Shown here: positions 1,990 through 58,987 of the stretch, in pieces
How the letters are laid out: each line of letters starts with the position of its first letter
How positions within the stretch are numbered: the first letter of the stretch is position 1
DNA from: an uncultured Gammaproteobacteria bacterium
GTDB lineage: Bacteria; Patescibacteriota; Patescibacteriia; VMEV01; CAYQCH01
Direction: 5' to 3'
NCBI GenBank assembly: GCA_964503955.1
Contig: CAZDCG010000003.1
Coordinates: 626-64,625, forward strand
DNA: 64,000 bases
The notes under the pieces: generated by a model
What the model saw: only the letters and a program-made list of their open reading frames with translations
Databases searched by the model: none
What the model was told of the DNA's origin: nothing
Position numbers and translations under genes: made by a program

Positions 1990-2169
1990 CTAGTCGTCCT
2001 CATCGTTGCGGTCGTTGTCCTCCTCCTCGCGGGGATTGACCGCGTAGCCGCCATGGCAGCGGCAGGTGCAGTCGGGATCCTCGCACTCTTCGCCTTCGCA
2101 GTACTCGTCGTCGCAGCCGCTCAGCGAGAGGCTCTCTTCGTCTTCATCTTCGGGAAATACCTCGGACAT
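1990..2169 (-). CDS. Small acidic Cys-rich protein (59 aa), hypothetical
   Basis: Translated by hand: MSEVFPEDEDEESLSLSGCDDEYCEGEECEDPDCTCRCHGGYAVNPREEEDNDRNDEDD*. GAGGTG Shine-Dalgarno sequence 4 nt upstream. At 59 aa it falls below the ORF-track cutoff. Divergent from mod. Confidence 0.4.
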   Translation of the reverse strand: MSEVFPEDEDEESLSLSGCDDEYCEGEECEDPDCTCRCHGGYAVNPREEEDNDRNDEDD

Positions 2170-2304
2170 AGCTCACCTCGTATGGCTGAAAACTTCCGGT
2201 TCGGGACAGGGTTTTTTACCAAGAAAAAGCCTTGGAGTCAAGGCATTTGCGGCATGTCAAGGATGGGAGAATGTGGTAAGGTATCTGAAGAAATAAATCG
2301 CTAT

Positions 2305-4233
2305 ATGCCTAAGAAACTCAAAGCAGCCAAAAAACTCTCCGGCGAATCCTTCCTGCCACAACAGGAACTTTTGGATCAGCTGAGAAAGAATTTTCCCGAA
2401 ATTTTTTCCGAGGGAAAAATTGATGTTAAGAAACTGAAAAAAACATTTGGCGAGCAGGTTGATGAAAGCGAAGAACGATATGGTTTAACCTGGGCGGGCA
2501 AAACAGATTGCTTTAGAGAGATTCAGGAACCTACAACCTGTACTTTAGTGCCTGATAAAAAAGAATCTGTTGATTTTGATAAAACCGAAAACATTTTTAT
2601 TGAAGGAGATAATCTCGAAGTACTAAAAGTTTTACAAAGATCGTACTACGGTAAGATCAAAATGATCTATATCGATCCTCCATACAATACCGGCAACGAT
2701 TTCGTTTACAATGACAATTTCAAAGAGAGCAAGGCAGATTATCGCGAGCGATCAGGGCAAAATGATAATTGCCGGCAGACGGCTTTGCAAAAGAATACGA
2801 AAGACAGCGGGCATTTTCACTCCAATTGGCTGAACATGATGTATCCGCGTCTGTTTCTGGCAAGAAATCTTCTCCGTCAGGACGGTGTCATTTTCATCTC
2901 CATTGATGACAATGAGGTTCATAATCTTAGGATGATCATGAATGAGATTTTTGGAGAAGAGAATTCTCTGACTGAGTCACCAACTGCTTTGATTTGGCAA
3001 AGATCTGGCACTACTGCAGGTCATTTTTCCAATGCACATGAATACATACTTTGCTATGCAAAAAGTAAGGTTGATACCCCATTCTTCCATTTGAAAGATT
3101 ATGGTTCTGAAAAGATCATTTCTCATGGAGCGTTAAAAAAGATCAGTCGAGCAAATCCAGAAAGTGAGATCACTTTTCCTGCTGGCATGGATTTTGAAGG
3201 AGAAGATGCTACGTTTGAGGGAGTCATTGGTGGCTCTGAAAAGCAAACGATAAATGGAAAGATGATATTCAAAGGAGGGAAATTACAGAAGCCCGTAAGC
3301 ATTTCTGCGGGTTGGGGAATGAAAGAACAAGTTTTATCATGGATTTCAGGCGAAGACACGTTCGACACAAAAGGGCAGAGAGTTCTAAGGTTTTATTTCA
3401 ACAAGGAAGGAATACTTTGGTATGAGAAAGAGCGTGGTACTGTGCACCCAAAAACTATCTTACCGTCAAATCTTGGCTCGACAAAAACGGGAACTCAAGA
3501 GTTGGTAACTTTGTTTGGATCTAAATTCTTTGATTATCCAAAGCCAAGTGCGCTATTACGTTATCTGGCGAGCTTCTCCTCGCATGAAGACGATATCATG
3601 CTTGATTTCTTTGCTGGCACAGGAACAACTGCCCATGCAGTAATGGCTCTAAATGCTGAAGATGGAGGGAATCGAAAATGCATTAGCGTGCAATTGGATG
3701 AGCCGACAGATGAGAATTCAGAAGCGTATAAAGCCGGCTATAAAAATATCGCCCAGCTTGCGCGTGAACGTATTCGCAGGGCAGCCAAAGAGATTAAAAA
3801 GGAGCATAAAGATAAAAAATTGGATCTTGGTTTTAAGGCATTCAAAATTCATAAGAGCAATTTCAAGATCTGGGAAAATAACATTCAAAACGAAAAAGAA
3901 TTGCTTGAGCAGATGAAAATGTCTATCGATAATCTGAAAAAGGGAGCAAAAATGGAAAATGTGCTTTATGAGCTCATCTTAAAGCTTGGTCTGGATTTGA
4001 ATATTCAAACAGAAAAGAAAACTGTGGCCAAGAAAGAATATTTTCTCTTGAACGAGGGAGAAGTGGCTATTTGTCTTGAAGAAAAGATCAATCAGCAGCT
4101 TATTGATGCAATCGTAAAAGATAAACCGGTAAGATTTGTTTGCCTCGAACATGCTTTTGCCAAGAATGATGAACTCAAAACAAATGCTCTCTTGCAAATG
4201 GAGCAGATGGGGATTGATTTCAGGGTGGTATGA
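2305..4233 (+). CDS. mod: Type III restriction-modification methyltransferase (Mod), N6-adenine, beta class
   Basis: DPPYNTG motif IV precedes FFAGTGTT motif I. N-terminus MPKKLKAAKK is typical of Mod. ORF-track frame 2053..4233. The upstream 84 codons were rejected because they overlap the minus-strand small gene. Start uncertain (2263 or 2305). Confidence 0.8.
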   Translation: MPKKLKAAKKLSGESFLPQQELLDQLRKNFPEIFSEGKIDVKKLKKTFGEQVDESEERYGLTWAGKTDCFREIQEPTTCTLVPDKKESVDFDKTENIFIEGDNLEVLKVLQRSYYGKIKMIYIDPPYNTGNDFVYNDNFKESKADYRERSGQNDNCRQTALQKNTKDSGHFHSNWLNMMYPRLFLARNLLRQDGVIFISIDDNEVHNLRMIMNEIFGEENSLTESPTALIWQRSGTTAGHFSNAHEYILCYAKSKVDTPFFHLKDYGSEKIISHGALKKISRANPESEITFPAGMDFEGEDATFEGVIGGSEKQTINGKMIFKGGKLQKPVSISAGWGMKEQVLSWISGEDTFDTKGQRVLRFYFNKEGILWYEKERGTVHPKTILPSNLGSTKTGTQELVTLFGSKFFDYPKPSALLRYLASFSSHEDDIMLDFFAGTGTTAHAVMALNAEDGGNRKCISVQLDEPTDENSEAYKAGYKNIAQLARERIRRAAKEIKKEHKDKKLDLGFKAFKIHKSNFKIWENNIQNEKELLEQMKMSIDNLKKGAKMENVLYELILKLGLDLNIQTEKKTVAKKEYFLLNEGEVAICLEEKINQQLIDAIVKDKPVRFVCLEHAFAKNDELKTNALLQMEQMGIDFRVV

Positions 4234-5012
4234 GGAAGAAGATAAAAAAAGAACTACACTTTTTTGTCGACGAAGCAGGAGACCCTGTTTTCTTTAATCG
4301 AAAGGGGCAATTGATCGTTGGGCAGGAAGGTTGCTCAAAAACTTTGCTTCTCGGGTTCGTTATGACGGAGGATCCAAAAGCGTTGAGAAAATCTCTGTTG
4401 AGTTTGCATAAAGATGTTATAAATGATCCGTATTTGCAAGATATACCTTCGATTCAAAAAACAAAGGTCGGATTTCATGCCAAAGATGATTGCCCGGAGG
4501 TGAGAGAAAAAGTATACAAACGAATAAAAGAAATGGATTTTACTGCCGAGTTCATTATTGCAAGAAAACTGGAAAAGACGTTTCGAAACAGGCACAAATC
4601 AAAAACAACAATTTTTTACGACGACCTTGTCACAAAATTATTCAAAAACAAACTTCATTTGGCTGAAAAAAATTACATAACCTACGCCTCAAGAGGAAAT
4701 AGAAAGAGGGAAGAGCCCTTCTCAGATGCCCTGCAGGTAGCGATCAATGATTTTGAAAAACAGTGGAAGACAAAAGTAGACAGTGAATACAAGGTAGAGG
4801 CGCATCGCCCTTCGGGCGAACCTTGCCTTCAAGTGGTGGATTATATGAATTGGGCGGTACAAAGAGCATTTGAACGAGGAGAAATGAGATATTTCAACTA
4901 TGTAAAAGAGAAGGTCAAATTTCTAGTAGATATTTACGACTTTGATAAGTACCCGACAAATTTCTATAACTCAAAAAACCAATTTGATATAACAAAAATG
5001 AGCCCCCTATAG
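4230..5012 (+). CDS. DUF3800-like protein embedded in the Type III R-M operon
   Basis: N-terminal FFVDEAGD matches the DUF3800 DESG signature. C-terminal LQVVDYMNWAVQR matches the GLQxAD motif. Start overlaps the mod stop (ATGA at 4230-4233). Confidence 0.6.
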   Translation: MRKKIKKELHFFVDEAGDPVFFNRKGQLIVGQEGCSKTLLLGFVMTEDPKALRKSLLSLHKDVINDPYLQDIPSIQKTKVGFHAKDDCPEVREKVYKRIKEMDFTAEFIIARKLEKTFRNRHKSKTTIFYDDLVTKLFKNKLHLAEKNYITYASRGNRKREEPFSDALQVAINDFEKQWKTKVDSEYKVEAHRPSGEPCLQVVDYMNWAVQRAFERGEMRYFNYVKEKVKFLVDIYDFDKYPTNFYNSKNQFDITKMSPL

Positions 5013-5122
5013 CTAGGTCTTTCGGACGCATGGCGTGAAGCCAGCTTTCGCATATAGGAGACTCACTCGTGCTTATATCATATCAGACTTCTCAAGAATT
5101 GTGGAGAGGTTGTGGATAACCT

Positions 5123-7762
5123 ATGAAAATTCAATTTGAATCCAATCAACAGTATCAAATTGATGCTGTAAACGCGGTCGTTAATGTCTTCAAGGGGCAA
5201 CCCGCTGAAGAGAGCTTTTTTCATAGCGAAATGTCGCAGCCGGATGGCCGCTTGCCTTTGAACGGACAGATGGTTGTGGCAAATCGCCTTGTCTTATCGG
5301 ATGAGACCCTGCTAAACAATGTTCAGCAGGTGCAAAAAGAAAATAGCTTAGGTTTATCTGAAAGATTAGGAAAAAGAAATTTCACGGTAGAAATGGAAAC
5401 AGGTACGGGAAAAACCTATGTCTACTTACGAACCATCCATGAGTTAAACCAGCGATACGGTTTTTCAAAATTTATCATTGTTGTTCCAAGCATCGCGATC
5501 AAAGAAGGGATAATCAAGAATCTTGAAATCACCAGAGAACATTTCGACACCCTCTTTGAGCATCCTGAAATGGATTTTTATGTCTGGAATCCGAAGAAAA
5601 AAGGCCAGGCCAGAAACTTTGCCACAGCAAACTCTTTGCAAATTCTTGTCATGAATGTTCAGGCATTCGCCGGGAAGGGAAGAATCATCCATCAAGAAAG
5701 TGACTGGGGCGTGCCGATTGATTTTCTGAAAGCAACCAATCCGATTTTGATTATCGACGAACCTCAGAATATGGAATCGGACATTCGTCGCAATGCCATT
5801 GAAGAGTTAAATCCTCTTTGCACATTACGTTATTCTGCTACCCACAAAGAGCCTTATAATCTGGTGTATAAACTGGATCCCGTAAAGGCGTATGATTTGG
5901 GCCTTGTGAAGAAAATTGAAGTTGATTCCATTATTGAAGAAGATAATCAAAACGGAGCCTTTGTGCAGCTCATTGATGTTGTCATGAAAGGGCGCATTCC
6001 AAAAGCGAAAATCAGAATCAAATCGCAGGAAACAGTGGGAATAAAGGATAAGGACGTATCTGTAAAGGTAGAAGACAATCTATTTCACATCACAAATGAA
6101 CATTCCATGTACCGAGATGGATTTATCGTTGAAGAAATCGATGCGCAGGAAAAGAAGATCAAATTCACGAACGGAGTTGTGCTTTACTCCGGAGAAACCA
6201 ACGGAAGAGATCGTGATGAGATTATGAAATTTCAGATTCTTCGAACCGTGCAAAACCATTTCAACAAAGAATTGATGTTGGAAAACAGTGGGGTGAAAGT
6301 TCTCACACTCTTTTTCATTGATAAAGTAGAGAATTATAGAAGCTACGAAAATGGCAGCGCAGTAAAAGGGAAAATCGCGAAATGGTTTGAAGAGGCTTAC
6401 AACGAAGTGACCAAAAATCCTCAATATAAATCATTGTGCCCATTTGACGCTCATGAAGTTCACAATGGGTATTTCTCTCAAGATAAAAAAGGGCTGTTGA
6501 AGAATACGAGCGGGCGCACAGAAGCAGACAATGATACCTACGCGCTTATCATGAAAGATAAGGAAAGGTTGCTTAGCCTTTCTGAACCATTAAGGTTTAT
6601 CTTCTCTCACTCTGCTCTCACCGAAGGCTGGGATAATCCAAATGTTTTTCAGATTTGTACGCTGAATGAAGTAAGTTCTGAAATGAAAAAGCGTCAGCAG
6701 ATCGGGCGAGGACTTCGCTTACCGGTTAATGACGAAGGGAAACGAGTCACAGATTCTGATGTGAATATCTTGACCGTGATTGCAAATGAAAGCTATGAGG
6801 GATTTGCGCGATCTCTACAAAAGGAGATCGAAGAAGAAACAGGGGTCACCTTTTCAGGGCGAATTAAACCAGCTCGGGAACGACGTACCTTGCGTGTGGG
6901 GAAAAAAGCGCTACTTAACCCCGATTTTCAGGAACTTTGGAAAAGAATTAACAAGAAAACGATCTATCGTGTTCAATTCAGCACGGAAGAATTGATTGAA
7001 AAGGCGGCTGAAAAGTTGAAAGAAGATATCGAGGTGAAATCACCAAAGTTCTTAAGTATCCGTGCCTCCATTGATCTGAAATCCGAGGGGGTAAAATCAA
7101 ATGTAAAAGCGGTTCATAGTAGAATCGCTTCTGCATCTAAAGCGGCGGTTCCGGATGTTCTAACCTACATACAAAAGAAAACGAAACTTAGTAAGCAAAC
7201 GGTTTTTGAAATGATTGAAAAGTCCGATACGGCGAAGGAGATCTTGAAGAACCCCCAGCAGTACATGGATCAGGCAGAGAAGTTGATCAAAAATGTTCTG
7301 GGGCAGTTAATGATTGAGGGGATCAAATACGAAAAAATTGCCGGACAATCCTGGGAAATGCGGTTGTTTGAGGAGCAGGAAATTCAGACCTATCTTAGCA
7401 ATCTGTATCACGTACGAAATGAGGAGAAAACAATCTATGATCATGTGGTCATCGATTCAGCGGTGGAAAGCTCCTTTGCGAAAGAATTGGATAGCCGTGA
7501 AGACGTGAAATTCTATCTGAAGCTACCAAACTGGTTCAAGATCCCAACCCCCATCGGAAGCTATAATCCCGACTGGGCTATCGTCTTTCACAAAGATAAA
7601 CGAATCTATTTTGTCGCCGAAACGAAAGGAGATGGCGAATTGCGCCCTTCCGAAGAATTCAAGATTGCATGCGGGAAGAAGCATTTTGAAGAATTGAAGG
7701 GTGTTCACTATCAGAAAGTACTCGTAAAAGGTGATCAATCAAATGTCGATCGGTATCTGTAA
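5123..7762 (+). CDS. res: Type III restriction enzyme Res subunit (SF2 helicase + PD-(D/E)xK)
   Basis: ETGTGKT Walker A and IIDEPQN DEAH-like box. C-terminal YNPDWAIVFH...ETKG nuclease motif. 879 aa. Confidence 0.8.
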   Translation: MKIQFESNQQYQIDAVNAVVNVFKGQPAEESFFHSEMSQPDGRLPLNGQMVVANRLVLSDETLLNNVQQVQKENSLGLSERLGKRNFTVEMETGTGKTYVYLRTIHELNQRYGFSKFIIVVPSIAIKEGIIKNLEITREHFDTLFEHPEMDFYVWNPKKKGQARNFATANSLQILVMNVQAFAGKGRIIHQESDWGVPIDFLKATNPILIIDEPQNMESDIRRNAIEELNPLCTLRYSATHKEPYNLVYKLDPVKAYDLGLVKKIEVDSIIEEDNQNGAFVQLIDVVMKGRIPKAKIRIKSQETVGIKDKDVSVKVEDNLFHITNEHSMYRDGFIVEEIDAQEKKIKFTNGVVLYSGETNGRDRDEIMKFQILRTVQNHFNKELMLENSGVKVLTLFFIDKVENYRSYENGSAVKGKIAKWFEEAYNEVTKNPQYKSLCPFDAHEVHNGYFSQDKKGLLKNTSGRTEADNDTYALIMKDKERLLSLSEPLRFIFSHSALTEGWDNPNVFQICTLNEVSSEMKKRQQIGRGLRLPVNDEGKRVTDSDVNILTVIANESYEGFARSLQKEIEEETGVTFSGRIKPARERRTLRVGKKALLNPDFQELWKRINKKTIYRVQFSTEELIEKAAEKLKEDIEVKSPKFLSIRASIDLKSEGVKSNVKAVHSRIASASKAAVPDVLTYIQKKTKLSKQTVFEMIEKSDTAKEILKNPQQYMDQAEKLIKNVLGQLMIEGIKYEKIAGQSWEMRLFEEQEIQTYLSNLYHVRNEEKTIYDHVVIDSAVESSFAKELDSREDVKFYLKLPNWFKIPTPIGSYNPDWAIVFHKDKRIYFVAETKGDGELRPSEEFKIACGKKHFEELKGVHYQKVLVKGDQSNVDRYL

Positions 7763-7775
7763 ACTCATTCTGCTT

Positions 7776-7988
7776 ATGAGCATTAAAGATTCCCTGAAAG
7801 AGATCAGACGGTTGAGAAGACAATGGCGGGCAAATAGCTTTACAGCCAAAGAGCTGCAGAGAAAATATGGTTTAACTGAACAGCAAATCAGCAGGTTGAC
7901 ACCTGATCATCAATTTGGAGAAGAACGCTATTCTAAACCACATGTGTTATATATGGTGAGCATAATGTGCAAAGAGAAGGGGGAATGA
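7776..7988 (+). CDS. Hypothetical small protein, possible HTH
   Basis: FTAKELQRKYGLTEQQISRL is helix-turn-helix-like. Overlaps the res 3' end. Weak. Confidence 0.2.
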   Translation: MSIKDSLKEIRRLRRQWRANSFTAKELQRKYGLTEQQISRLTPDHQFGEERYSKPHVLYMVSIMCKEKGE

Positions 7989-8014
7989 CCTCTCCCTATC
8001 ATCATATCGAAATT

Positions 8015-8046
8015 CCGCAGCGGCGTATTGCAAAACGCCGCTGCGG
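8015..8046. repeat. REP-like palindrome upstream of the transposase
   Basis: CCGCAGCGGCG-TATTGCAAAA-CGCCGCTGCGG. Its first 19 nt recur inside the transposase gene at 8361..8379. Confidence 0.55.
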
Positions 8047-8055
8047 GCAAAATCA

Positions 8056-8064
8056 TGCTATAAT
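8056..8064 (+). promoter_or_regulatory. Putative extended -10 (TGcTATAAT) for the transposase gene
   Basis: TGCTATAAT lies 34 nt upstream of the ATG at 8098. No clear -35. Confidence 0.25.
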
Positions 8065-8097
8065 ACACATGCCCACACCCCGAACCAGGGGTGTTTT

Positions 8098-8592
8098 ATG
8101 TTGAAAAATCGCCAGTCGTCGAGATTGAAAGGATACGATTATGCGCAGCCGGGATCTTATTTTGTCACCCTCGTGACAAAATTCAGGTACCCGTTCTTTG
8201 GTAGAGTTATCAAAGGAAAAATGCATTTAAGCCGAATGGGATTTGTGGTCAGACGTGAATGGGACCGTACACTCATCATACGAAAAAACGTTGAACTAGA
8301 TGCATTCATCATCATGCCTGATCATCTGCATGGAATCATTCATATCAAATATGCCCATCCCCGCAGCGGCGTATTGCAATGCGCCCCTGCGGGATTTGTT
8401 TCACCGTCGCAAACGTTGGGGGCGATTATTCGAGGCTTTAAATCCGCTGTTACCAAAAAAATTCACGTGATGGGAAACGAAGAATTTTCCTGGCAACGAA
8501 ATTTTCATGATCGTATTATCCGTGATGAACAATCATTGCATCAGATCCGTGAATACATTCGATTAAATCCAAAAAACTGGAAAAGTCTTTAA
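8098..8592 (+). CDS. IS200-like HUH tyrosine transposase (Y1 family, COG1943), possibly REP-associated (RAYT-like)
   Basis: HUH motif MPDHLHGIIH. C-terminal catalytic Tyr context REYIRLNP. N-terminal LKGYDYAQPGSYFVTLVT. Contains the internal palindrome 8359..8393. Confidence 0.7.
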   Translation: MLKNRQSSRLKGYDYAQPGSYFVTLVTKFRYPFFGRVIKGKMHLSRMGFVVRREWDRTLIIRKNVELDAFIIMPDHLHGIIHIKYAHPRSGVLQCAPAGFVSPSQTLGAIIRGFKSAVTKKIHVMGNEEFSWQRNFHDRIIRDEQSLHQIREYIRLNPKNWKSL

Positions 8593-8599
8593 AACGCTT

Positions 8600-8650
8600 C
8601 CACCCCCACCGCCATCCGTCCGGGAAGGACTTCAGGCGATGGGGGTGGTG
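8600..8650. repeat. GC-rich stem-loop element E1, immediately 3' of the 247-aa gene
   Basis: CCACCCCCACCGCC...GGCGATGGGGGTGG gives a ~14-bp stem with a 21-nt loop. About 80% identical to E2 at 9499..9552. Confidence 0.55.
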
Positions 8651-8655
8651 AGTTG

Positions 8656-9399
8656 CTAGGCGCAGGCGAGCTCGGGGGCCTGCTTGCGGACCCAGTCCTC
8701 GCTGGGGCCGCCCGCGAGCAGGAAGCTGTCGAGGAGCTTCTTGCTGAAGGCCTTCGCCAGGATCTTCCCGTACGGCTCGTCGAGCTCGGGGTTGCCGTCG
8801 ATGTCGTTGAAGAACGTCTCGGGCCCCGCGAGATCTCGCTTGAGCACGCGCCGCAGGCGCTTGATGCCGTAGGCCTCGGCGATCTCCCACAGCGCCTGGT
8901 TGAGGAGGCTGTGGTTGTGGTGCACCCAGGCCAGCGAGGGGGAGTCCATGAAGGACTGGTCGCAGTCGCAGTGGAGCTCGGTGAGCCCCATCTGCACGAA
9001 GGCGTTCAGGAACTCCGACGGCTTGGCCTTCTCCGAGACCATCTTCTCGAGGGTCTCGAGCCAGCCGATGACCTCGTTGAGGCCGACGAGCTCGAACTTG
9101 GTCTGGAGCAGGCCTGCCACGCGGCCGGCGTCGGTGCTCATGGCCGGGGCGCTGTACCGCTCCTTGAGCACGAAGTGCTTGGACGCCTCGAGGAGGTCGC
9201 CCTTGGCGCGGGCCGCCTCGAAGGCGTCGCGGCAGGCCTTGGCCTGCTGGCTCTCCAGCATCCACGGATCGCGCAGCCGCTTGGGCGGCTCGAAGTAGCT
9301 GAACGCCTGCTCCTGGCGCTGGATGCGCTTCAGGAAGAAGGTGATGCCGTACTCGAGCTTCTGTCGGGCCTCGTTGCGCAGGTGGTTGAGGGTCTTCAC
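8656..9399 (-). CDS. Hypothetical protein (247 aa), GC-rich, probably horizontally acquired
   Basis: GTG start at 9399 with a perfect AGGAGG 5 nt upstream. About 65% GC. Features HCDCDQ and WVHHNH. The overlapping opposite-strand ORFs are GC-frame artefacts. Confidence 0.5.
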   Translation of the reverse strand: MKTLNHLRNEARQKLEYGITFFLKRIQRQEQAFSYFEPPKRLRDPWMLESQQAKACRDAFEAARAKGDLLEASKHFVLKERYSAPAMSTDAGRVAGLLQTKFELVGLNEVIGWLETLEKMVSEKAKPSEFLNAFVQMGLTELHCDCDQSFMDSPSLAWVHHNHSLLNQALWEIAEAYGIKRLRRVLKRDLAGPETFFNDIDGNPELDEPYGKILAKAFSKKLLDSFLLAGGPSEDWVRKQAPELACA

Positions 9400-9498
9400 G
9401 AGGGCCTCCTTTAATTAGATAAAAGAACAAAAATCAACCTCACTAATATAGCATAAGTGGCCTATTTTGTCAAGTGTTTTAGCAGCCAAAAAACAAAT

Positions 9499-9552
9499 CC
9501 ACCCCAACCGCCGTCGGTCCTTGGATAAGAACTTCGAGCGATGGGGGTGGTC
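9499..9552. repeat. GC-rich stem-loop element E2, immediately 3' of the 112-aa gene
   Basis: CCACCCCAACCGCCGTCGGTCC...GAGCGATGGGGGTGGTC, homologous to E1. Begins 12 nt after the stop of 9565..9903. Confidence 0.55.
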
Positions 9553-9564
9553 AAAGACGAGGCG

Positions 9565-9903
9565 CTAGAGCAGGCTATTGAGCCATTCGTACAGCAACGT
9601 CAGGCTCTCGTCGGTGCTGGAGAAGGTGCCGTCCTGCGTCACGGCGGCGTTCTCGTAGAACACGAAATGGCCGTTGTCCTGCGCGTAACGGACCAGCGCG
9701 AGACGCGGACACCGCATGACGCTTGAGGAGCGGATCATGCTGGGCTCGCTGAGGTTCTTGGCGAGCCACTCCTCCTTGCCGTCCCACTGGCGGATTTCGG
9801 GCAGAAAGCCGCGCTCCTGAACGGCGGCCAGCAGCTTGTCCGAGCCACTCACGACATGGTCGGTCATGCTGGCCGGGTACACGTATACGAACAACTTCTT
9901 CAT
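9565..9903 (-). CDS. Hypothetical small protein, paralog A
   Basis: Paralogous to 9952..10338: YAQDNGHFVFYENAAVTQDG versus FAKRHGHFLFFGRFAILSDE, and both end ...LLYEWL / ...LLSHWL. Confidence 0.5.
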   Translation of the reverse strand: MKKLFVYVYPASMTDHVVSGSDKLLAAVQERGFLPEIRQWDGKEEWLAKNLSEPSMIRSSSVMRCPRLALVRYAQDNGHFVFYENAAVTQDGTFSSTDESLTLLYEWLNSLL

Positions 9904-9951
9904 TGGTCCCCTTTTCAGCAGCGGCCGATTACCGCTGAGTGGGCGATTACA

Positions 9952-10338
9952 TCATAGTTCAGACGGCAAGTCAACGGCGCGGGCAGATTCCCACTGATGC
10001 GCAAGCCAGTGGCTGAGCAGAGCGGCCGCATCTTGATCCATGACATAGGTCTCATCAGAGAGGATCGCAAAACGGCCAAAGAATAAAAAGTGGCCATGCC
10101 TTTTTGCAAAATGTGCGATCTGCGCGACGGTGCAATCCATGGATTGCGAAATGCGTATCAGGCTTGGCGGCGCATGCACAGGAATTGAAGAAAGTTTCCC
10201 ATTCCAGAGATATGCTTCAGGGATAATCCTTTGCTTGCTCAGGGTATCCGCCAGCCAAAAAGACAGAGCGGCCAATTGTTTGAAGCTCATCGGTGACGGC
10301 TGATAGATCCGGACGCGTTTTATCTTCCTGTTAGGCAT
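9952..10338 (-). CDS. Hypothetical small protein, paralog B
   Basis: Paralog of 9565..9903. Same strand, in tandem. Confidence 0.5.
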   Translation of the reverse strand: MPNRKIKRVRIYQPSPMSFKQLAALSFWLADTLSKQRIIPEAYLWNGKLSSIPVHAPPSLIRISQSMDCTVAQIAHFAKRHGHFLFFGRFAILSDETYVMDQDAAALLSHWLAHQWESARAVDLPSEL

Positions 10339-10395
10339 ATCTCAGAGACAAAAATCCCTCCTTTTAAGGAGGGAAGTTGCCGGCACTATGCTTTC

Positions 10396-10536
10396 TTAAA
10401 GATCAATACACCAATCCTTACTAATGATACAAAGATCTTTGTTCTTTTTCGTTGCGCCGGTTGAAGGAATTGCCGCCAGTGCGAATACAGCAGTACCCAG
10501 AACAAAGGATGAAAGCAGTCGTTTCAAATCCATAGA
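10396..10536 (-). CDS. Small secreted Cys-containing peptide, hypothetical
   Basis: MDLKRLLSSFVLGTAVFALAAIPSTGA has a signal-peptide-like N-terminus. The mature ~20 aa carries C..C. Start moved to the internal Met. Confidence 0.3.
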   Translation of the reverse strand, partial: SMDLKRLLSSFVLGTAVFALAAIPSTGATKKNKDLCIISKDWCIDL

Positions 10537-10754
10537 AATAATGCGTTTAAGTGAAATCCCCTCGATTCTATTACACAAAAAGCTGAACAATCTGCCGTAG
10601 GTGGTCTATGAGGTTGTAGGTTTTCGTTGTTCGTTTTTCGTGCCTTCTCACTGTATTTCCTAAGACCTAACACCTAAAACCTAGCTCGTTACCTTTTTCA
10701 AAATGCCTCGTATATACTAGTAGATGCGTAACGTATGACGCACTATCTACACCT

Positions 10755-11315
10755 ATGGATCCACAAGAACAGGCGCTGATCGCGTCTGCCAAAGAGGGGA
10801 ACGCGCAAGCTTTTGGCGAGCTTTATGACCGGTATATCAAGTCCATCTACGACTTCATCTACTATAAGACCTGGCATAAAGAAACCGCCGAAGACCTGAC
10901 GAGTCAAACCTTTTTCAAAGCGCTTCGCCAGCTGGCGAGCTATGCGCCGAAAAAGGCGGAGTTCTCCACCTGGCTCTACAGCATCGCACGCAATACCGTC
11001 ATTGACCATTACCGGACAAACCGTCCGCAAGATCCGATTGAAGATGCGCTTGCCCTTTCATCGCAAGGAGAGACCGACATCAGGCTTGACGCCAGGTTGA
11101 AACTTGAAAAGGTCAAAGAGGCCCTTGCCCGGCTCACACCCATGCAGCGCGAAATTATTTTGCTGAGAGTCTGGCAGGAGAAAAGCCATGAGGAAATCGC
11201 GGCGATTACCGGCAAAACGGAATCGGCCGTAAAAATGGCCTATTCACGGGCAATCAAGCAGCTTCGCTCTTCTGTTCCACTTAGCGCTTATCTTTTCTTC
11301 CTCCTTCACCTATGA
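10755..11315 (+). CDS. ECF-type RNA polymerase sigma factor (sigma-70 regions 2 and 4)
   Basis: Region 2: FGELYDRYIKSIYDFIYY...WLYSIARNTVIDHYR. Region 4: EIILLRVWQEKSHEEIAAITGKTESAVKMAYSRAIKQLR. Confidence 0.8.
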   Translation: MDPQEQALIASAKEGNAQAFGELYDRYIKSIYDFIYYKTWHKETAEDLTSQTFFKALRQLASYAPKKAEFSTWLYSIARNTVIDHYRTNRPQDPIEDALALSSQGETDIRLDARLKLEKVKEALARLTPMQREIILLRVWQEKSHEEIAAITGKTESAVKMAYSRAIKQLRSSVPLSAYLFFLLHL

Positions 11316-12784
11316 AAAAACGCTCGATCCAGGAAATCCTTGAGGAGCTCTATGAGCTGGACGCGTCCTTGCGCGGCCGCGAACGGGAGCTTGAACCTCT
11401 GCTTGAGCAGCTGCTCGCCGCCAAGCCGGATACCCGCCTGAACAAGACATTTATCAATAGACTTAAAAAAGAACTTATGCAGGAAATGCAACCAACAGCA
11501 AAGCCGCTGATTGATTTCAAGTCGGCTTTGGGCGGCGCCCTTGCCACCGGGCTTATTGCCGTCGTGCTCTTTGTGGCTGTCGCGCCGAATCGTTCGCTGA
11601 TGCCGCAGATTTCACAGGATGGCAATCTCTCGTTCTTTGCACCGCAGACAACAAGGCTTGGCGGCAAAGCCTTTGGCGTGCTGACAGGCGATGCCTCGCA
11701 GGAAACTGATCTTTCAAAGATTTCCGCCCGCAATCCGGTTCCGGGCTTTGGCGGAGGCGGAGTCGTGGAAGACAGGGAAATGTCTGGTTTGATCTATCGT
11801 CCGGTTGAAGTACGCTATACCTATACAGGCGAGCCGCTTGAACTCACTCAGGAACAGGGGAATGTCTACCGCCGCCTCAAAGGTGAAGCATCCGCGGCAC
11901 AGCTGGCTTCCCATCTGCGATCTGTGAACCTGTCTGTGCTCAATCTTGGATCATTCAGCAATTTGATGCTCAATACCTTTCAGCTCTCTGAAAACCGCGA
12001 CCTGGGACTGCAGCTCTATGTTGATCTGATGGAAAGCTCCATCTCTATCAATCCAAACTGGGAGCGCTGGGGAAATGACTACAATCCGATTCCGGTTGAC
12101 CGGCTTCCATCCGATGAGGAATTGATCGCCATCGCGAATAATTTTCTGAGCAGCCATGGTGTTTCACTCGCGGCCTATGGACAGCCCCAGGTGAATAAAG
12201 AATTCCGTTACTGGATCGCGCTTGAAGGCCAGCCCGCTCCGGAGATCAACGAAATCAATATTGTCTATCCGCTTCAGCAGGAAGGGTTGGAAACTATGGA
12301 AAGCTATGGCGGCTTCTACGGCATCAATGTCAGCATCAACCTTGCACGCCGCCAGGTATACAGCGTGTCTAACCTGATCGCTCCGCATTGGGAACAGTCT
12401 GCCTACGATCTGGTCACTGACGCAGAGCGCGTGCTGGCCGTGGCGGAGCGCGGAGGACAGCCTATCTACTTCTTTGACCAGCCTGAAGAAAACCAGGAAG
12501 TGGTGGAGGTCCAGCTTGACCGGGCGGAACAAGTGTATGTACGTCACTGGGAATACAAGAATGACAAGTCAGAAGAGCTCTTTGTGCCAGCCATTAGATT
12601 CCACGTGGCAGAGCGGCCGGAGAACGCCCCTTACATTCAGGACTATATCGTCGTGCCGTTGATTGACGAGATTCTGAAGTCGTATGAAACGCAGCCGGAT
12701 GGATCCGTCAGACCGGAGCCTCGGCCATTACCGGTTGAACCGTTGATCGACGCGGACGCGCCGGTCGCGAGCACGGAAGGATAA
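11312..12784 (+). CDS. Putative anti-sigma factor / single-pass membrane protein with large extracytoplasmic domain
   Basis: ATGA overlap with the sigma gene. Architecture is ~80 aa cytoplasmic, TM (GGALATGLIAVVLFVAVA), then ~380 aa outside. Paralogous to 13811..14833. Confidence 0.55.
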   Translation: MKKRSIQEILEELYELDASLRGRERELEPLLEQLLAAKPDTRLNKTFINRLKKELMQEMQPTAKPLIDFKSALGGALATGLIAVVLFVAVAPNRSLMPQISQDGNLSFFAPQTTRLGGKAFGVLTGDASQETDLSKISARNPVPGFGGGGVVEDREMSGLIYRPVEVRYTYTGEPLELTQEQGNVYRRLKGEASAAQLASHLRSVNLSVLNLGSFSNLMLNTFQLSENRDLGLQLYVDLMESSISINPNWERWGNDYNPIPVDRLPSDEELIAIANNFLSSHGVSLAAYGQPQVNKEFRYWIALEGQPAPEINEINIVYPLQQEGLETMESYGGFYGINVSINLARRQVYSVSNLIAPHWEQSAYDLVTDAERVLAVAERGGQPIYFFDQPEENQEVVEVQLDRAEQVYVRHWEYKNDKSEELFVPAIRFHVAERPENAPYIQDYIVVPLIDEILKSYETQPDGSVRPEPRPLPVEPLIDADAPVASTEG

Positions 12785-12794
12785 GCTAACGAGA

Positions 12795-12821
12795 AAAACC
12801 TCCCGCAAGGGAGGTTTTTTT
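12795..12821 (+). terminator. Rho-independent terminator
   Basis: CCTCCC-GCAA-GGGAGG followed by T7. Confidence 0.8.
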
Positions 12822-13003
12822 GATGTCTTGGTTCCTGGTTCCTTCTCCCGCTATTGCGCCCTTCCTCGGCCCTTCCTAATTCCCAATTCTTTCGGCTTTG
12901 GGTCTTTAGGATGTTTAAGAACCAGGGGGAGGAATTAGGTATTAGGAATTGAGAAAGCCAGAACTCGCCCAAGCAAGCATCCGCATTTAGAAGTTTATTT
13001 CGG

Positions 13004-15020: not shown

Positions 15021-15094
15021 CGGGGTGTCGTATAACGGTAGTATATGCCCATGGGGTGGGTAAGGCCGGAGTTCAATTCTCCGCACCCCGACCA
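15021..15094 (+). tRNA. tRNA-Pro (anticodon GGG) with encoded CCA; unusual short variable loop
   Basis: Manual fold: acceptor CGGGGTG/CACCCCG (C1:G72), U8, D-arm GTAT-AACGGTA-GTAT, anticodon arm TGCCC-ATGGGGT-GGGTA (U33, GGG, G37), 4-nt variable loop, T-arm CGGAG-TTCAATT-CTCCG, A73, CCA. Confidence 0.5.
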
Positions 15095-30946: not shown

Positions 30947-31447
30947 ATGAATATCGATCGTTTTTCGGAATGGGGGCTTTCTCGCTCGGGGAGCCTCAGG
31001 CCTGTCACGCCGATCAAGGACACGGAAGTCCATAAGCCGGTCAAGTTCAGGATCGGCACGAGCGAGTTCAAGTGCGGGTGTGTGGAGCACGTCGTCAAGC
31101 TCTTCCTGCTTATGGAGTGGGGCGGGAAGGAACGGATCAAGACCGAGCGCAGGTTCTGCCTGTCCGGCCTTCTTCACATCGGGCGGCAGCTCTACATGGA
31201 GCGCACGGGAACGGGCTGCCAGCTCTGCAAGCAGATCCTGCTGTCCATGCGCGTGTACGCGGAGCAGCACCGAGACTGCAGGGGGCTGAAGCCCAAGGAG
31301 CGGGTCCGCAGCCTCGATCGCACCTGTGTCACGCAGGAAGATGTTCTGCGCATTGCGGGCGTCATCAACAAGCGGCTGGATGCTCTGCGCAAGCTTGAAA
31401 CGCCTCCGCGCAAGCCGCCTCGCCGCAAGAAGGCCAAGTCGGCCTAA
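30947..31447 (+). CDS. Hypothetical protein with basic C-terminal tail (GC-rich)
   Basis: Shine-Dalgarno sequence AAAAGGGG. C-terminal PPRKPPRRKKAKSA. Confidence 0.4.
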   Translation: MNIDRFSEWGLSRSGSLRPVTPIKDTEVHKPVKFRIGTSEFKCGCVEHVVKLFLLMEWGGKERIKTERRFCLSGLLHIGRQLYMERTGTGCQLCKQILLSMRVYAEQHRDCRGLKPKERVRSLDRTCVTQEDVLRIAGVINKRLDALRKLETPPRKPPRRKKAKSA

Positions 31448-32999: not shown

Positions 33000-33226
33000 A
33001 GAAGTTGCTTTTCTTCCTTCCTTCCGTAACACACACGGTAACTTGCAACTCATTCGTAAGTTTGGTGGAAAGTTCGTAAATCTCGCGTTCAAGTTCAGGC
33101 TAGGGCTGAGTCTCGAACAGAAATTTAAACAAAACTACTCTTTAAGTGGCTGGAGTGCTCCTCCTTCCATTGCCAATTTCACATAAATTGCTATACTCGG
33201 CTCCACCCTCACAAAGGAGCGCATGG

Positions 33227-34321
33227 ATGCAGTCTTCGGGTAATCTGACGCTAACGTTTCGTGGTATCGAGTTCAAAGTACAGCTGTTCCCGACGCACGG
33301 CAATCAGCCGGTCGGGCGCAAGGATGTCCACACCGGCTGCGAGAAGCCGGTGGCCGTCCGGGATGCCTGCCCGTACTGTCTGAAGGGGTGCATCGAGGAG
33401 CGGGAAGAGCGCGAGGCCGAGACCGGTACGCCGGCCATGCCTCACCCCATTCCCGTCATGACCGGGAAGAGGGGTCGGGAGCGGATCGCCTGCGCCGACG
33501 CGCAGGACATGCCGCTCTTCAACCAGAAGGTGGTCGGTTCGCCGAGCGCGCCTCCCCTCAAGCAGACCTACTGCTCGGATCCTTCCTGCGGCAAGGTGAT
33601 CAAGGACAAGGCGGTTTCCGCCTGGGAGTGCGCGAACTGCAACAAGGTCGTCAACCGCGATGAAGTGGCCAAGGCCTACGTCGTTGAGGGCAGGATCTTC
33701 CTGTTCTCGCAGGAGGAGCAGGACGCTCTGGCCGCGCTCGAGGTCGGCCAGCGGCTGATGATCATCGAGTCGCTCGCACCCGACCAGGAGCCGTGGTTTG
33801 GCGAGCAGGGGGAAACCTACGCCGTCGTTCCGGAGAAGCGAGCGGAGTATCCGTTCGCGGTGTTCCGTAACGGAACGCTGATGCATGGCCATACGTGGCT
33901 CGCCGCCATGCGATTCAAGGAGGGGTACGAGCACGCGGTGCTGCTGCGCGCCAAGAGCGAGTACGGCTACATGCTCATGACGCTGCTCAAGCCGCGCCGC
34001 CACAGGCGCAACTTCGAAGTGCTTCTTCCCGAGATCGCGGAGCAAGACGCTCTGCTGATGGGGCAGGTCATGGCCACGGCCCGCCGTGTGGGCGCGCCTT
34101 CGGCGGAGTCCCACAAGCTCGAGTCGTCGCGGCAGGCGCATTTCGCCGAGCTCATCGCCGCCAAGACCGCCAGCAAGGCGTACGTCATTCCGCCGCCACA
34201 GGCGCTGGACGAGCAGACCGCGGCGGCCGCAGCTCAGCTGCTCGATTCGTTCGCCGAGTACGAGATGGCGAAGAAGAAGGGCAAGAAGAAGGCCGCCCGG
34301 AAGCAGGAAGCAGCTTCTTAG
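33227..34321 (+). CDS. Ku-like DNA end-binding protein (divergent, with Cys-rich insertion and Lys-rich tail)
   Basis: LTLTFRGIEFKVQLFPT, VAKAYVVEGRIFLFSQEEQDALAAL and YAVVPEK...HAVLLRAKSE resemble the bacterial Ku core. About 90 aa insert with a C-x2-C...C-x2-C cluster. C-terminal KKKGKKKAARK. AAAGGAG Shine-Dalgarno sequence. Confidence 0.5.
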   Translation: MQSSGNLTLTFRGIEFKVQLFPTHGNQPVGRKDVHTGCEKPVAVRDACPYCLKGCIEEREEREAETGTPAMPHPIPVMTGKRGRERIACADAQDMPLFNQKVVGSPSAPPLKQTYCSDPSCGKVIKDKAVSAWECANCNKVVNRDEVAKAYVVEGRIFLFSQEEQDALAALEVGQRLMIIESLAPDQEPWFGEQGETYAVVPEKRAEYPFAVFRNGTLMHGHTWLAAMRFKEGYEHAVLLRAKSEYGYMLMTLLKPRRHRRNFEVLLPEIAEQDALLMGQVMATARRVGAPSAESHKLESSRQAHFAELIAAKTASKAYVIPPPQALDEQTAAAAAQLLDSFAEYEMAKKKGKKKAARKQEAAS

Positions 34322-48986: not shown

Positions 48987-49063
48987 TGGTGGACCTGAGG
49001 GGACTTGAACCCCTGGCCTCTTCCATGCCATGGAAGCGCTCTAGCCAACTGAGCTACAGGCCC
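48987..49063 (-). tRNA. tRNA-Ala (anticodon GGC), CCA encoded
   Basis: Manual fold: GGGCCTG acceptor with G3:U70, anticodon arm CTTCC-ATGGCAT-GGAAG, T-arm GGGGTTCAAGTCCCC, ACCA 3' end. Confidence 0.85.
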
Positions 49064-49088
49064 ATGGTGCGGGGCTTGCACAACTCAG

Positions 49089-49160
49089 TGGGGCTAGATG
49101 GATTCGAACCATCGCCTTCCATGTTATAAGCATGGTGCTCTACCGCTGAGCTATAGCCCC
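49089..49160 (-). tRNA. tRNA-Ile with UAU anticodon (no encoded CCA)
   Basis: Manual fold: acceptor GGGGCTA/TAGCCCC, anticodon arm CCATG-CTTATAA-CATGG (U33, UAU, A37), T-arm GATGGTTCGAATCCATC, A73. Confidence 0.75.
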
Positions 49161-57690: not shown

Positions 57691-58128
57691 TTACACGGCA
57701 GCTTCGTCTTTCTTTTCCTCGGTTGGTGTTTCTGTTTCAGTAGGTGTTTCTGCTGGAGCTTCGGCTGCTTCTTTGGCAGCTTTTTCGGCTTCGGCCTTTG
57801 CCTTGGCTTCTTCTTTTGCCTTTTCTGCTGCTTCTTTGATCGCTGTCTTGGCTGCTTTTCCAAGTTTAGAAACATTGCGTTTCTTGTCTTTGATCAGGCC
57901 GGCTTCAACCAGGATATTGTGAACGGAATCCGTTGGCTGCGCGCCTTGCGACATCCAGTGTTTCACTCGGTCTTCTTTGAGTGTTACCGTTGCTGGATTT
58001 GTCAGTGGGTTATAAGTGCCGACATTTTCGAGGTAATTTCCCCATGGATCTTTGGTATGTTCCATGACAAGAATTCTGTAGATCGGCTGCTTCTTTTTCC
58101 CCACGCGAGAGAGTTTAATCTTCAGCAT
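57691..58128 (-). CDS. rpsP: 30S ribosomal protein S16 with Lys/Ala-rich C-terminal extension
   Basis: MLKIKLSRVGKKKQPIYRILV is the canonical S16 N-terminus. About 60-aa KAEAK-rich tail. Confidence 0.85.
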   Translation of the reverse strand: MLKIKLSRVGKKKQPIYRILVMEHTKDPWGNYLENVGTYNPLTNPATVTLKEDRVKHWMSQGAQPTDSVHNILVEAGLIKDKKRNVSKLGKAAKTAIKEAAEKAKEEAKAKAEAEKAAKEAAEAPAETPTETETPTEEKKDEAAV

Positions 58129-58366: not shown

Positions 58367-58987
58367 ATGACCGTACGTTTCAGCAAGGATCTCCGCGTGG
58401 ATGCCGATGTCGAGCTCGATCAGCTGAAGGCCAACCTCGAGCGGGGTGTGACCACCATCCAGAAGATGTGGCTCGCGGCCTGGCTGGGCAACGAGCCCGC
58501 CCAGAAGCTCCTCGAGTCCGGCCCCGTGCACCGCGCGCTCGCGAACCTGGGCAACGGCCCCATCGGCCCTGTGCTCCAGTCCTTCGACAACGACAACAGC
58601 TTCACCCGCCGGGTGCTGCTGGTGGTCGCCAAGAAACTCCTGCCCGCCTGGCAGGTGCTCTTCCCGGACGATCCGCTCGGCCAACACGTGGTCGACAGCA
58701 TCGAGCACGCGATCAGCCACGGTCCCAACCCCGACATCAAGCAGCACCTGGGCGACAAGATCGGGTGCGGCCGGTACGGCATGGTCAGCGAGAGCAGCTG
58801 GCTGGCGGCCCTGCTCCGGAAGGCGCACGAGCCCAAGCCCAGCCTCAACTTCAAGGACGAGGTGGTCGTGCCGCTGATCGGGACCGATCAGAACATCCAG
58901 GACAACGCGCTGGCGCTGGACATCCTCAACCAGGAGCTGTCCATGTGGCTCCTGACGGGCCGCGAGATCAGCATCAGCCAGCGCTAG
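58367..58987 (+). CDS. Hypothetical protein (GC-rich, ~65% GC)
   Basis: Clear ORF with a GAAGAGGTAAG Shine-Dalgarno sequence. The overlapping minus-strand ORFs are artefacts. Confidence 0.4.
   Translation: MTVRFSKDLRVDADVELDQLKANLERGVTTIQKMWLAAWLGNEPAQKLLESGPVHRALANLGNGPIGPVLQSFDNDNSFTRRVLLVVAKKLLPAWQVLFPDDPLGQHVVDSIEHAISHGPNPDIKQHLGDKIGCGRYGMVSESSWLAALLRKAHEPKPSLNFKDEVVVPLIGTDQNIQDNALALDILNQELSMWLLTGREISISQR

Follow-up and report, generated by a model that had tools for sequence, protein, structure and literature searches.

Genes whose base composition departs from that of their host are known as 'alien' genes or genomic islands, and their composition is read through an amelioration model. 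Atypical base composition is routinely taken as a sign of foreign origin. Open reading frames (ORFs) that are each followed by an imperfect inverted repeat, in tandem and in the same orientation, are known from integron cassettes. GC-rich stem-loops that directly follow a stop codon, on the sense strand, are known from Rho-independent terminators and from 3' stabilisers of the repetitive extragenic palindromic (REP) type. A GC excess of an entire gene class has been described for gene-transfer-agent genes, where it was attributed to selection rather than transfer and concerns codon positions 1 and 2, i.e. amino-acid choice, not the third position (bioRxiv 10.1101/2020.05.06.081315). This is the only precedent for a gene-class-specific GC excess that surfaced in full-text searches of the literature. 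The locus described here comprises three minus-strand genes and two stem-loops, E1 and E2, within 64,000 nucleotides of contig CAZDCG010000003.1 (hereafter the window).

The genes code for orphan proteins of 128 aa (9952..10338, TGA stop) and 112 aa (9565..9903, TAG stop) and for a protein of 247 aa (8656..9399, GTG start, TAG stop), as proposed in an earlier note on this DNA that was based on the sequence alone. E2 (9484..9550, minus strand) follows the 112-aa gene and E1 (8600..8648, minus strand) follows the 247-aa gene. Window positions 7818-12848 were recovered at 100% identity in four Logan assemblies (runs SRR118438xx), and the same junctions were found in two strain variants from other runs (L005 and L006). 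With its junctions seen again in assemblies that belong to three accession series of sequencing runs, the locus is real and neither an assembly artefact nor a chimera. In addition, NCBI contains a protein identical to the 128-aa product, encoded on a 162-kb contig.

We read the locus as a fixed part of the chromosome bordering a defence island (type III restriction-modification and DUF3800 genes), not as a mobile cassette array. Our tentative preference, held at slightly below even confidence, is that its hairpins act as terminators on the sense RNA and that a regime of G/C-ending codons in two of its genes is maintained in place by selection.

Synonymous composition of the locus and of related genes

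Twenty-five ordinary genes of the window served as host reference. The GC content of their third codon positions (GC3) is 0.53 and that of their second positions (GC2) 0.37, and the GC content of the window is 0.51. The z-scores are based on synonymous codons resampled from host usage. For the 247-aa gene, the GC contents of codon positions 1, 2 and 3 are 0.64, 0.38 and 0.98, respectively (z 14.9). GC3 is 0.88 in the 112-aa gene (z 7.4) and 0.94 (z 11.8) in a gene for a 206-aa orphan protein elsewhere in the window (58367..58987, plus strand). The 128-aa paralog is not shifted: its GC content of 0.51 and GC3 of 0.56 correspond to the window average (z 0.1) and its codon usage is of the host type. 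The markedly higher GC content formerly ascribed to all three genes of the locus thus holds for the 112- and 247-aa genes, but not for the 128-aa gene.

The ratio of A-ending to G-ending codons for Lys, Glu and Gln was found to be 0:52, compared to 1398:934 in host genes. In the 247-aa gene, Leu is encoded only by CTC and CTG and Arg only by CGN codons. TTG accounts for none of the 25 G-ending Leu codons of the 247- and 206-aa genes, the host fraction being 0.44. Since the shift extends to the synonymous first positions in Leu and Arg codons, it affects all synonymous sites and not only the wobble base. Eight of ten GC3-rich genes end with TAG, compared to 4 of 25 host genes.

The 'GC-richness' of the shifted genes is purely synonymous. 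The 247-aa protein is host-like in composition, with 7.7% Lys, 6.0% Arg and a K/(K+R) ratio of 0.69 in the conserved domain. The GC excess of its gene stops at the borders of the ORF, and only the hairpins are GC-rich among the non-coding flanks. The promoter and 5' untranslated region (UTR) have a GC content of 0.35 for the 247-aa gene (9400-9483) and 0.33 for the 206-aa gene, compared to 0.49 for pooled intergenic DNA. This pattern is the reverse of that of gene-transfer-agent genes, since it concerns GC3 and not codon positions 1 and 2. The comparison with host codon usage that the earlier note had recommended revealed an anomaly stronger than GC content alone had shown, and one at codon level rather than a sign of mobility.

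Two simple causes were considered. Host codons favoured at high expression ('optimal' codons) were rejected, since the ribosomal protein gene rpsP (57691-58128, minus strand) has a GC3 of 0.44; it ends with TAA and is not shifted. Causes acting on the wobble base only, such as avoidance of third-position A in response to HigB-like toxins, are weakened because TTG and AGG are avoided as well.

The 206-aa gene lies beside rpsP, from which it diverges, and has its own promoter and terminator. Its product is without a Pfam match and unrelated in sequence to the 128-, 112- and 247-aa proteins. The S16 protein encoded by rpsP is extended at its C-terminus by about 60 aa, among which Ala, Glu and Lys are abundant. 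Two further ORFs of the window have raised GC3 values and little or no family match. The first (30947-31447, plus strand; GC3 0.83) ends with TAA. The second (33146-34321, plus strand; 391 aa, GC3 0.82) ends with TAG, contains two CxxC pairs and shows a sub-threshold match to the Ku beta-barrel (E 4e-4). Its start may lie further downstream, as a promoter-like site is present at 33170-33197.

An exhaustive HMMER search of 1.84 billion cluster representatives (50%-identity clusters), which stand for 15 billion proteins, assigned the 247-aa protein to an uncharacterised family of 52 cluster representatives including the query. The closest relative outside the two strain variants shows 38% identity. 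DNA was read for seven further family contexts. The difference between gene and neighbour GC3 is largest in the window (0.98 versus 0.53, ln-odds shift 3.75), followed by L013 (0.91 versus 0.55, 2.10), L015 (0.92 versus 0.65, 1.83), L017 (0.92 versus 0.66, 1.79), L019 (0.75 versus 0.38, 1.61) and L023 (0.67 versus 0.36, 1.28). At L018, the gene has a GC3 of 0.88 between flanks with a GC content of about 0.45, without neighbouring genes for comparison. L022, in a 69%-GC genome, harbours a member at host composition (0.90 versus 0.85, ln-odds shift 0.45), whose domain is free of lysine (K/(K+R) 0.00). Across the family loci, gene GC2 is near neighbour GC2.

In the low- and mid-GC loci the gene is located among housekeeping genes: after trmD, between rpsP and khpA, or beside ispG-like or rarA-like genes. 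Its promoter is close to the consensus, and it ends with terminator hairpins of its own, which are unrelated to E1 and E2. L023 contains two GC3-rich orphan genes between rpsP and khpA, and L015 a family member after trmD. Because these and the 206-aa gene of the window are all found there, the rpsP-trmD region is a recurrent site of such genes. The S16 protein of L023 (139 aa) is also extended. Another member (P0027), with a C-terminal REC-like extension, is encoded on a 161-kb contig (JGI 3300047160) amid about 20 genes without a Pfam match, near AAA_25 and PIN_12; these surroundings may be a mobile or viral island.

Like 'alien' genes, the shifted genes are orphans with a codon usage far from that of the host, beside restriction-modification and transposase genes. 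They differ in being GC-richer instead of AT-richer, in deviating at synonymous sites only, in their host-like amino acids and flanks, and in their recurrence in diverged relatives from unrelated genomes. Maintenance in place is favoured because a GC3 near 1 coexists with a host-like protein composition, because the GC excess has sharp ORF borders, and because the trait recurs in diverged relatives among core genes of hosts with GC3 values of 0.36-0.66. It is further favoured since no excess is seen in the high-GC host, since the trait is common to three unrelated orphan families within a single genome and since no close donor was found.

Import is a serious rival, which we regard as possible though rather unlikely. 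The 112- and 247-aa genes and their relatives would stem from high-GC donors, to which the family would be native, and be ameliorated to varying degrees; the hairpins would have come along and host promoters would have been recruited later. The member in the 69%-GC genome is at that host's composition and several relatives are Arg-rich. Donor-like amino acids, i.e. a high GC2 and far more Arg than Lys, were however not found for the 247-aa protein, and the least ameliorated gene (GC3 0.98) encodes the most low-GC-like protein. GC3 of the relatives drops with host GC (from 0.92 to 0.67), as amelioration would give. Still, all six low- and mid-GC loci with readable neighbouring genes are shifted and none is fully ameliorated, and two strains separated by a synonymous divergence (dS) of about 0.1 both have a GC3 of 0.98. 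E1 and E2 are GC-rich and the neighbourhood includes a defence island and a transposase gene, which would suit an import, but the GC excess ends at the start codon. No plasmid or phage copies were found, and no homolog above 38% identity outside the strain variants occurs among the cluster representatives searched, which is absence of evidence only. The small sample on short contigs leaves room for import; the occurrence of the trait in three unrelated orphan families speaks against it. Finally, TGA is the dominant stop codon in high-GC bacteria, while the usual stop of the shifted genes is TAG.

Several further observations weigh against maintenance in place. A native family member in a high-GC genome (L022) and the roughly one quarter of members that are Arg-rich and high-GC-like show that a high-GC reservoir exists. 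The intermediate GC3 values of the two lowest-GC hosts (0.75 and 0.67) would also fit partly ameliorated imports. Only seven independent loci were readable. Most of their contigs measure 1-3 kb and offer few neighbouring codons, and the GC2 range of the low- and mid-GC loci is narrow. TAG is not universal, as two family members end with TAA, and the TAG count is not phylogenetically independent. The hairpins are GC-rich like the terminators of high-GC bacteria and E1 is without a canonical U-tract. The strains differ at synonymous sites (dS about 0.10) without visible suppression. The link between the 112- and 247-aa proteins consists of adjacency and a weak fold-class analogy to REC-like domains, for which hhalign found no similarity, and any selective agent is hypothetical.

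Under maintenance in place, selection would act on the coding transcript or the DNA of strongly promoted, fast-evolving orphan genes. Its likely purpose would be a stable, structure-rich message without A/U-rich stretches that resists A/U-directed RNases or silencing, and of the two stop codons that contain G, TAG may have been picked for being the tighter. A wider proposal, which we consider conceivable but doubtful, is that of a 'GC armour': a class of orphan genes with G/C at essentially every synonymous site and a TAG stop, selected across hosts with GC3 values of 0.36-0.66 and resisting A/U-directed attack. Such an attack could come from RNases, ribosome-dependent mRNA interferases, a shortage of tRNAs for A-ending codons or AT-directed DNA silencing. 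The family of the 247-aa protein would be the first marker of such an armour, and full-text literature searches did not turn up a gene-specific precedent for it.

If the regime is maintained in place, very strong gene-specific synonymous selection can exist in bacteria (ln-odds 1.3-3.7), with a direction opposite to that of rpsP, the one ribosomal gene checked. Composition-based detection of horizontal transfer would then mislabel such genes, as the deviation concerns synonymous sites only and the proteins and regulatory flanks look native. It would also offer a handle on the selective agent, be it mRNA decay, toxins, tRNA supply or silencing. Should the genes be imports instead, the locus would amount to an ordinary island that carries duplicated terminators.

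Stem-loops E1 and E2

E1 consists of a 14-bp outer stem (arms 8600-8613 and 8635-8648) and an inner 4-bp stem-loop, with a folding energy of -41.5 kcal/mol (z -4.3). It lies between the 247-aa gene and an HUH gene, which are convergent. E2 is formed by a 13-bp outer stem with one mismatch (arms 9499-9511 and 9538-9550) and an inner stem-loop (-35.9 kcal/mol, z -2.4), which together span 9499-9550 and are followed by a U-tract (9484-9498, AUUUGUUUUUU). Downstream of E1 the sequence reads GAAGCGUUUUAAAG…, with the U-rich tail (GAAGCGUUUUAAAGACUUUUCCAGUUUUUU) displaced by 5 nt. On the sense strand, the stems begin 7 nt (E1, 247-aa gene) and 14 nt (E2, 112-aa gene) after the respective TAG stop codon.

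The two elements are direct repeats with 77% identity over 39 nt and 74% over 76 nt. Their similarity extends into the last codons and the TAG stops, so that both the homologous GC-rich stem-loops and the resemblance around the two stops described previously are confirmed. Because the homology includes the last codons, E1 and E2 are read as a duplicated module. In an alignment of four copies (two loci from two strains), 97% of the cells are paired across 18 pairs. All five cells with one-sided stem changes (at three positions; A-U to G-U and C-G to U-G) give G·U pairs on the sense strand, whereas the same changes would be C·A mismatches on the opposite strand. Because only the sense strand accommodates the one-sided changes as G·U pairs, the elements are read as RNA modules and not as recombination sites.

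Within the window the arm motif occurs at E1 and E2 only; three other matches with up to two mismatches are unpaired. An exact-pattern scan of the stem in 185,579 GTDB species genomes gave six chance-like matches with unrelated loops, none of them in the host genome, and the same scan of viral contigs gave none. The Rfam comparison proposed in the earlier note yielded nothing at E1 or E2, neither at gathering thresholds nor at permissive E-values. A consensus terminator scan was limited to loops of up to 8 nt and missed both elements because their loops are longer.

These features point to duplicated modules that probably act on the sense RNA as Rho-independent terminators or 3' stabilisers. 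In common with such elements, E1 and E2 are GC-rich stem-loops directly after a stop codon, with a U-tract at E2 and a pairing preserved by G·U. Compared to ordinary terminators, their stems are unusually long (13-14 bp plus the inner stem-loop) and mutually homologous, and the U-tract of E1 is displaced. Unlike REPs, the element is not dispersed, since both copies in 64 kb belong to the locus. The role as RNA 3'-end or stability element, one of the options raised before, is thus supported by the position after the stops, the U-tract of E2 and the G·U pattern. A read-through of TAG into a conserved peptide was also considered and rejected, as E1 and E2 were judged by reading to be in different frames relative to their stops.

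Between E2 and the 247-aa gene, a sigma-70-type promoter (TTGACA-17-TATATT with an extended TG; 9445..9473, minus strand) matches 11 of 12 consensus positions in addition to the TG and is the top sigma-70 match of the window. A Shine-Dalgarno (SD) sequence (AAAGGAGG; 9405..9412, minus strand), which makes a strong ribosome-binding site, is located 5 nt upstream of the GTG start. The 112- and 247-aa genes would accordingly be separate transcription units, the former with a terminator-like end at E2, and the hairpins would terminate the transcripts and protect their 3' ends.

The earlier note had also offered a mobile cassette array. E1 and E2 would then be recombination sites bounding gene cassettes, either attC-like or REP-like and serving the neighbouring HUH transposase. 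We consider this very unlikely. The order of ORF and hairpin is repeated twice, the direct repeats flank the 247-aa unit and the HUH gene is adjacent. In contrast to attC sites, the elements are without RYYYAAC/GTTRRRY cores (5' sides TAGCAAC and CTTTGAC, 3' sides GTTTTAA and GTTTTTT) and their stems are without extrahelical bases. Their changes are G·U on the top (sense) strand and C·A on the bottom strand, which fits sense RNA and not a bottom DNA strand. No integron integrase was found in the tested neighbouring proteins (the remaining ORFs of the window were not all scanned), and the second unit, the 247-aa gene, differs from a cassette in having its own promoter. The window has only two copies, and exact-pattern scanning of other collections revealed no further one. 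Strain variants from two other runs retain the arrangement, and the relatives of the 247-aa gene carry unrelated terminators. A RAYT gene is flanked by its own inverted REPs, whereas here the 5' flank of the HUH gene carries a different palindrome (8010-8047) and E1 is found on the 3' side only. The earlier observations are largely right, while the cassette interpretation is wrong except for the RNA-stability option for the hairpins.

Protein families and strain variation

The family of the 247-aa protein is undescribed. Common to its members is a C-terminal domain some 130 aa long, in which the residues W113, C144, C146, W158, H160, H163, N167, R183, D189, G211, F226, P232 and W236 are near-invariant. 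The motifs HCDCDQ and WVHHNH (codons 144-163; 8911..8970, minus strand), in which the earlier note had seen no recognisable family, form the near-invariant core, and the resulting CxC…WxHxxH pattern is a putative zinc site as judged from the conservation of C144, C146, W158, H160 and H163. The AlphaFold2 model is all-alpha, with a predicted local distance difference test (pLDDT) score of 93.4. In a structural search it gave generic long-helix matches only and no specific fold.

Neither this protein nor the 128- and 112-aa proteins matched Pfam, PHROGs or PADLOC; NCBIfam was scanned with neighbouring genes only. Word-indexed protein searches with all three proteins returned the same organism or strain variants only. 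No PDB chain sequence was matched by alignment profiles with the 247- and 112/128-aa proteins. Nothing was found in viral scans with the 247-aa family, the 206-aa protein and the 112/128 pair, nor by tblastn against plasmids and phages. A metagenome search with a sub-alignment of the family gave nothing beyond one already known contig. A neighbour-joining tree of the family is star-like and uninformative about transfer.

Among described domains, the SWIM zinc finger (CxCxnCxH) is similar in having a CxC dyad followed by a distant His-containing helix. When compared to Pfam, no member of the family passed the threshold; one of 41 showed a sub-threshold SWIM match (E 0.009) and the other 40 showed none. 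The second half is WxHxxH instead of CxH, and the all-helical domain of about 130 aa is without a structural match.

The two small proteins are paralogs, as previously claimed, with 28% identity over 109 aa in BLASTP (E 1e-13). The predicted fold is a generic flavodoxin-like alpha/beta fold (AlphaFold2 pLDDT of 87.6 for the 112-aa protein) and not SUKH or an immunity fold. REC-like domains were found fused to some relatives of the 247-aa protein, or located beside them (e.g. L022 2890-3309). A link of the 112/128 pair to these domains was tried and rejected (hhalign probability below 1%); by analogy, it may serve as a lead at most.

A toxin-immunity or polymorphic-toxin locus with tandem immunity paralogs, the other interpretation put forward earlier, is highly improbable. 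The paralogs are in tandem and diverged, the neighbouring gene evolves fast and the setting is a defence island, all of which speaks for such a locus. Among the ORFs at 7.7-11.3 kb (ECF sigma factor, a 64-aa ORF and the RAYT-like gene), however, there is no polymorphic toxin gene with trafficking and C-terminal toxin domains, and no toxin, Rhs, LXG or CdiA-type gene is found nearby. The search for SUKH, immunity or toxin folds that had been suggested gave no PDB match to sequence profiles, only the flavodoxin-like prediction for the small proteins and the all-alpha model without a specific match for the 247-aa protein. The lack of Pfam, PADLOC and PHROG matches speaks against this reading as well, and the relatives of the 247-aa gene occur singly in housekeeping surroundings.

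The allele of strain variant L005 (L005 202-726) encodes 174 aa and is a mosaic with respect to the window. The first 276 nt, covering the first 25 codons and upstream DNA, are 99.3% identical; then codons 26-98 are deleted, after which identity falls to 90%. The recombination breakpoint is at the deletion. The deleted codons represent the N-terminal helical part (9106..9324, minus strand), which is also absent from short family members of 130-160 aa. For codons 99-153 (8941..9105, minus strand), a hypervariable patch beside and including the CxC dyad, a nonsynonymous divergence (dN) of 0.289 and a dS of 0.111 were obtained, which corresponds to a ratio of 2.6. Codons 154-240 yielded a dN of 0.033 and a dS of 0.101. 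This positively selected patch beside the motif suggests that the protein acts in a molecular conflict, perhaps jointly with the flavodoxin-like 112/128-aa proteins. The analysis thus delimits an uncharacterised family that combines a putative zinc site with a patch under positive selection. A diversity-generating retroelement was considered in view of changes at codon positions 1 and 2 and rejected: a second copy of the variable patch is not present in the 64 kb and many changes do not involve adenine (not every ORF was screened for a reverse transcriptase).

The mosaic allele bears on GC-biased gene conversion at a recombination hot spot, whereby frequent exchange between strains and a repair bias would raise GC wherever selection allows. 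Besides the mosaic, it could account for the shift of synonymous first positions of Leu and Arg along with the third, and half of the six purely synonymous differences between window and L005 are G/C transversions. We nevertheless regard it as improbable, because the effect has ORF-sharp borders and the 128-aa gene, 48 nt away, is unaffected. In the adjacent 5' UTR and promoter, the AT content exceeds the average of intergenic DNA. Moreover, the known recombination-linked GC effects in bacteria are far smaller than the ln-odds shifts of 2-3.7 seen here. Maintenance by selection remains our preferred, if tentative, explanation of the codon regime.

Neighbouring genes

The neighbour that had been noted as an HUH transposase gene is confirmed to be transposase-like: a RAYT/IS200-like HUH-Y1 gene coding for 164 aa (8098..8592, plus strand) converges on E1 and abuts it. 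It scores 23.3 bits for Pfam Y1_Tnp (cut-off 23) and 62.8 for NCBIfam REP_Tyr_transpos (cut-off 80). It is treated as a neighbour rather than as part of the system. The palindrome immediately upstream of it (8010-8047) is near-perfect and 38 nt long (CCGCAGCGGCGTATTGCAAAACGCCGCTGCGG). A second copy with 89-91% identity (8360-8397) is part of the RAYT-like reading frame; it falls between the HUH motif and the C-terminal Tyr region and encodes ...HPRSGVLQCAPAGF... These are the only two copies within 64 kb, and they may represent the transposase's own REP-like site, inserted in frame.

Upstream of the HUH gene are the type III restriction-modification genes (2053-7762, plus strand). A DUF3800 gene (4230-5012; PADLOC DUF3800_VII, E 1e-26) lies between the methyltransferase (mod) and endonuclease (res) genes and overlaps the end of the methyltransferase gene by 4 nt.

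A gene for an extracytoplasmic function (ECF) sigma factor is located on the opposite side of the locus. Between it and the 128-aa gene there is a possible ORF of 45 aa (10396-10533, minus strand), an internal-ATG version of the 64-aa ORF. The N-terminus of its product resembles a signal peptide and the short tail contains two cysteines (…TKKNKDLCIISKDWCIDL). A canonical terminator (10355-10374) is found at the end of the ORF. The sole SD-like sequence ahead of the 128-aa start (GGAGGG) is in the 3' arm of this terminator.

Three tRNA genes of the window were recorded in addition. A tRNA-Pro(GGG) gene (15021-15094, plus strand) was not reported by Rfam at gathering threshold. Elsewhere, tRNA-Ala(GGC) (48987-49063, minus strand) is located next to tRNA-Ile(UAU) (49088-49160, minus strand). 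The anticodon UAU on tRNA-Ile is an uncommon bacterial solution for reading AUA.

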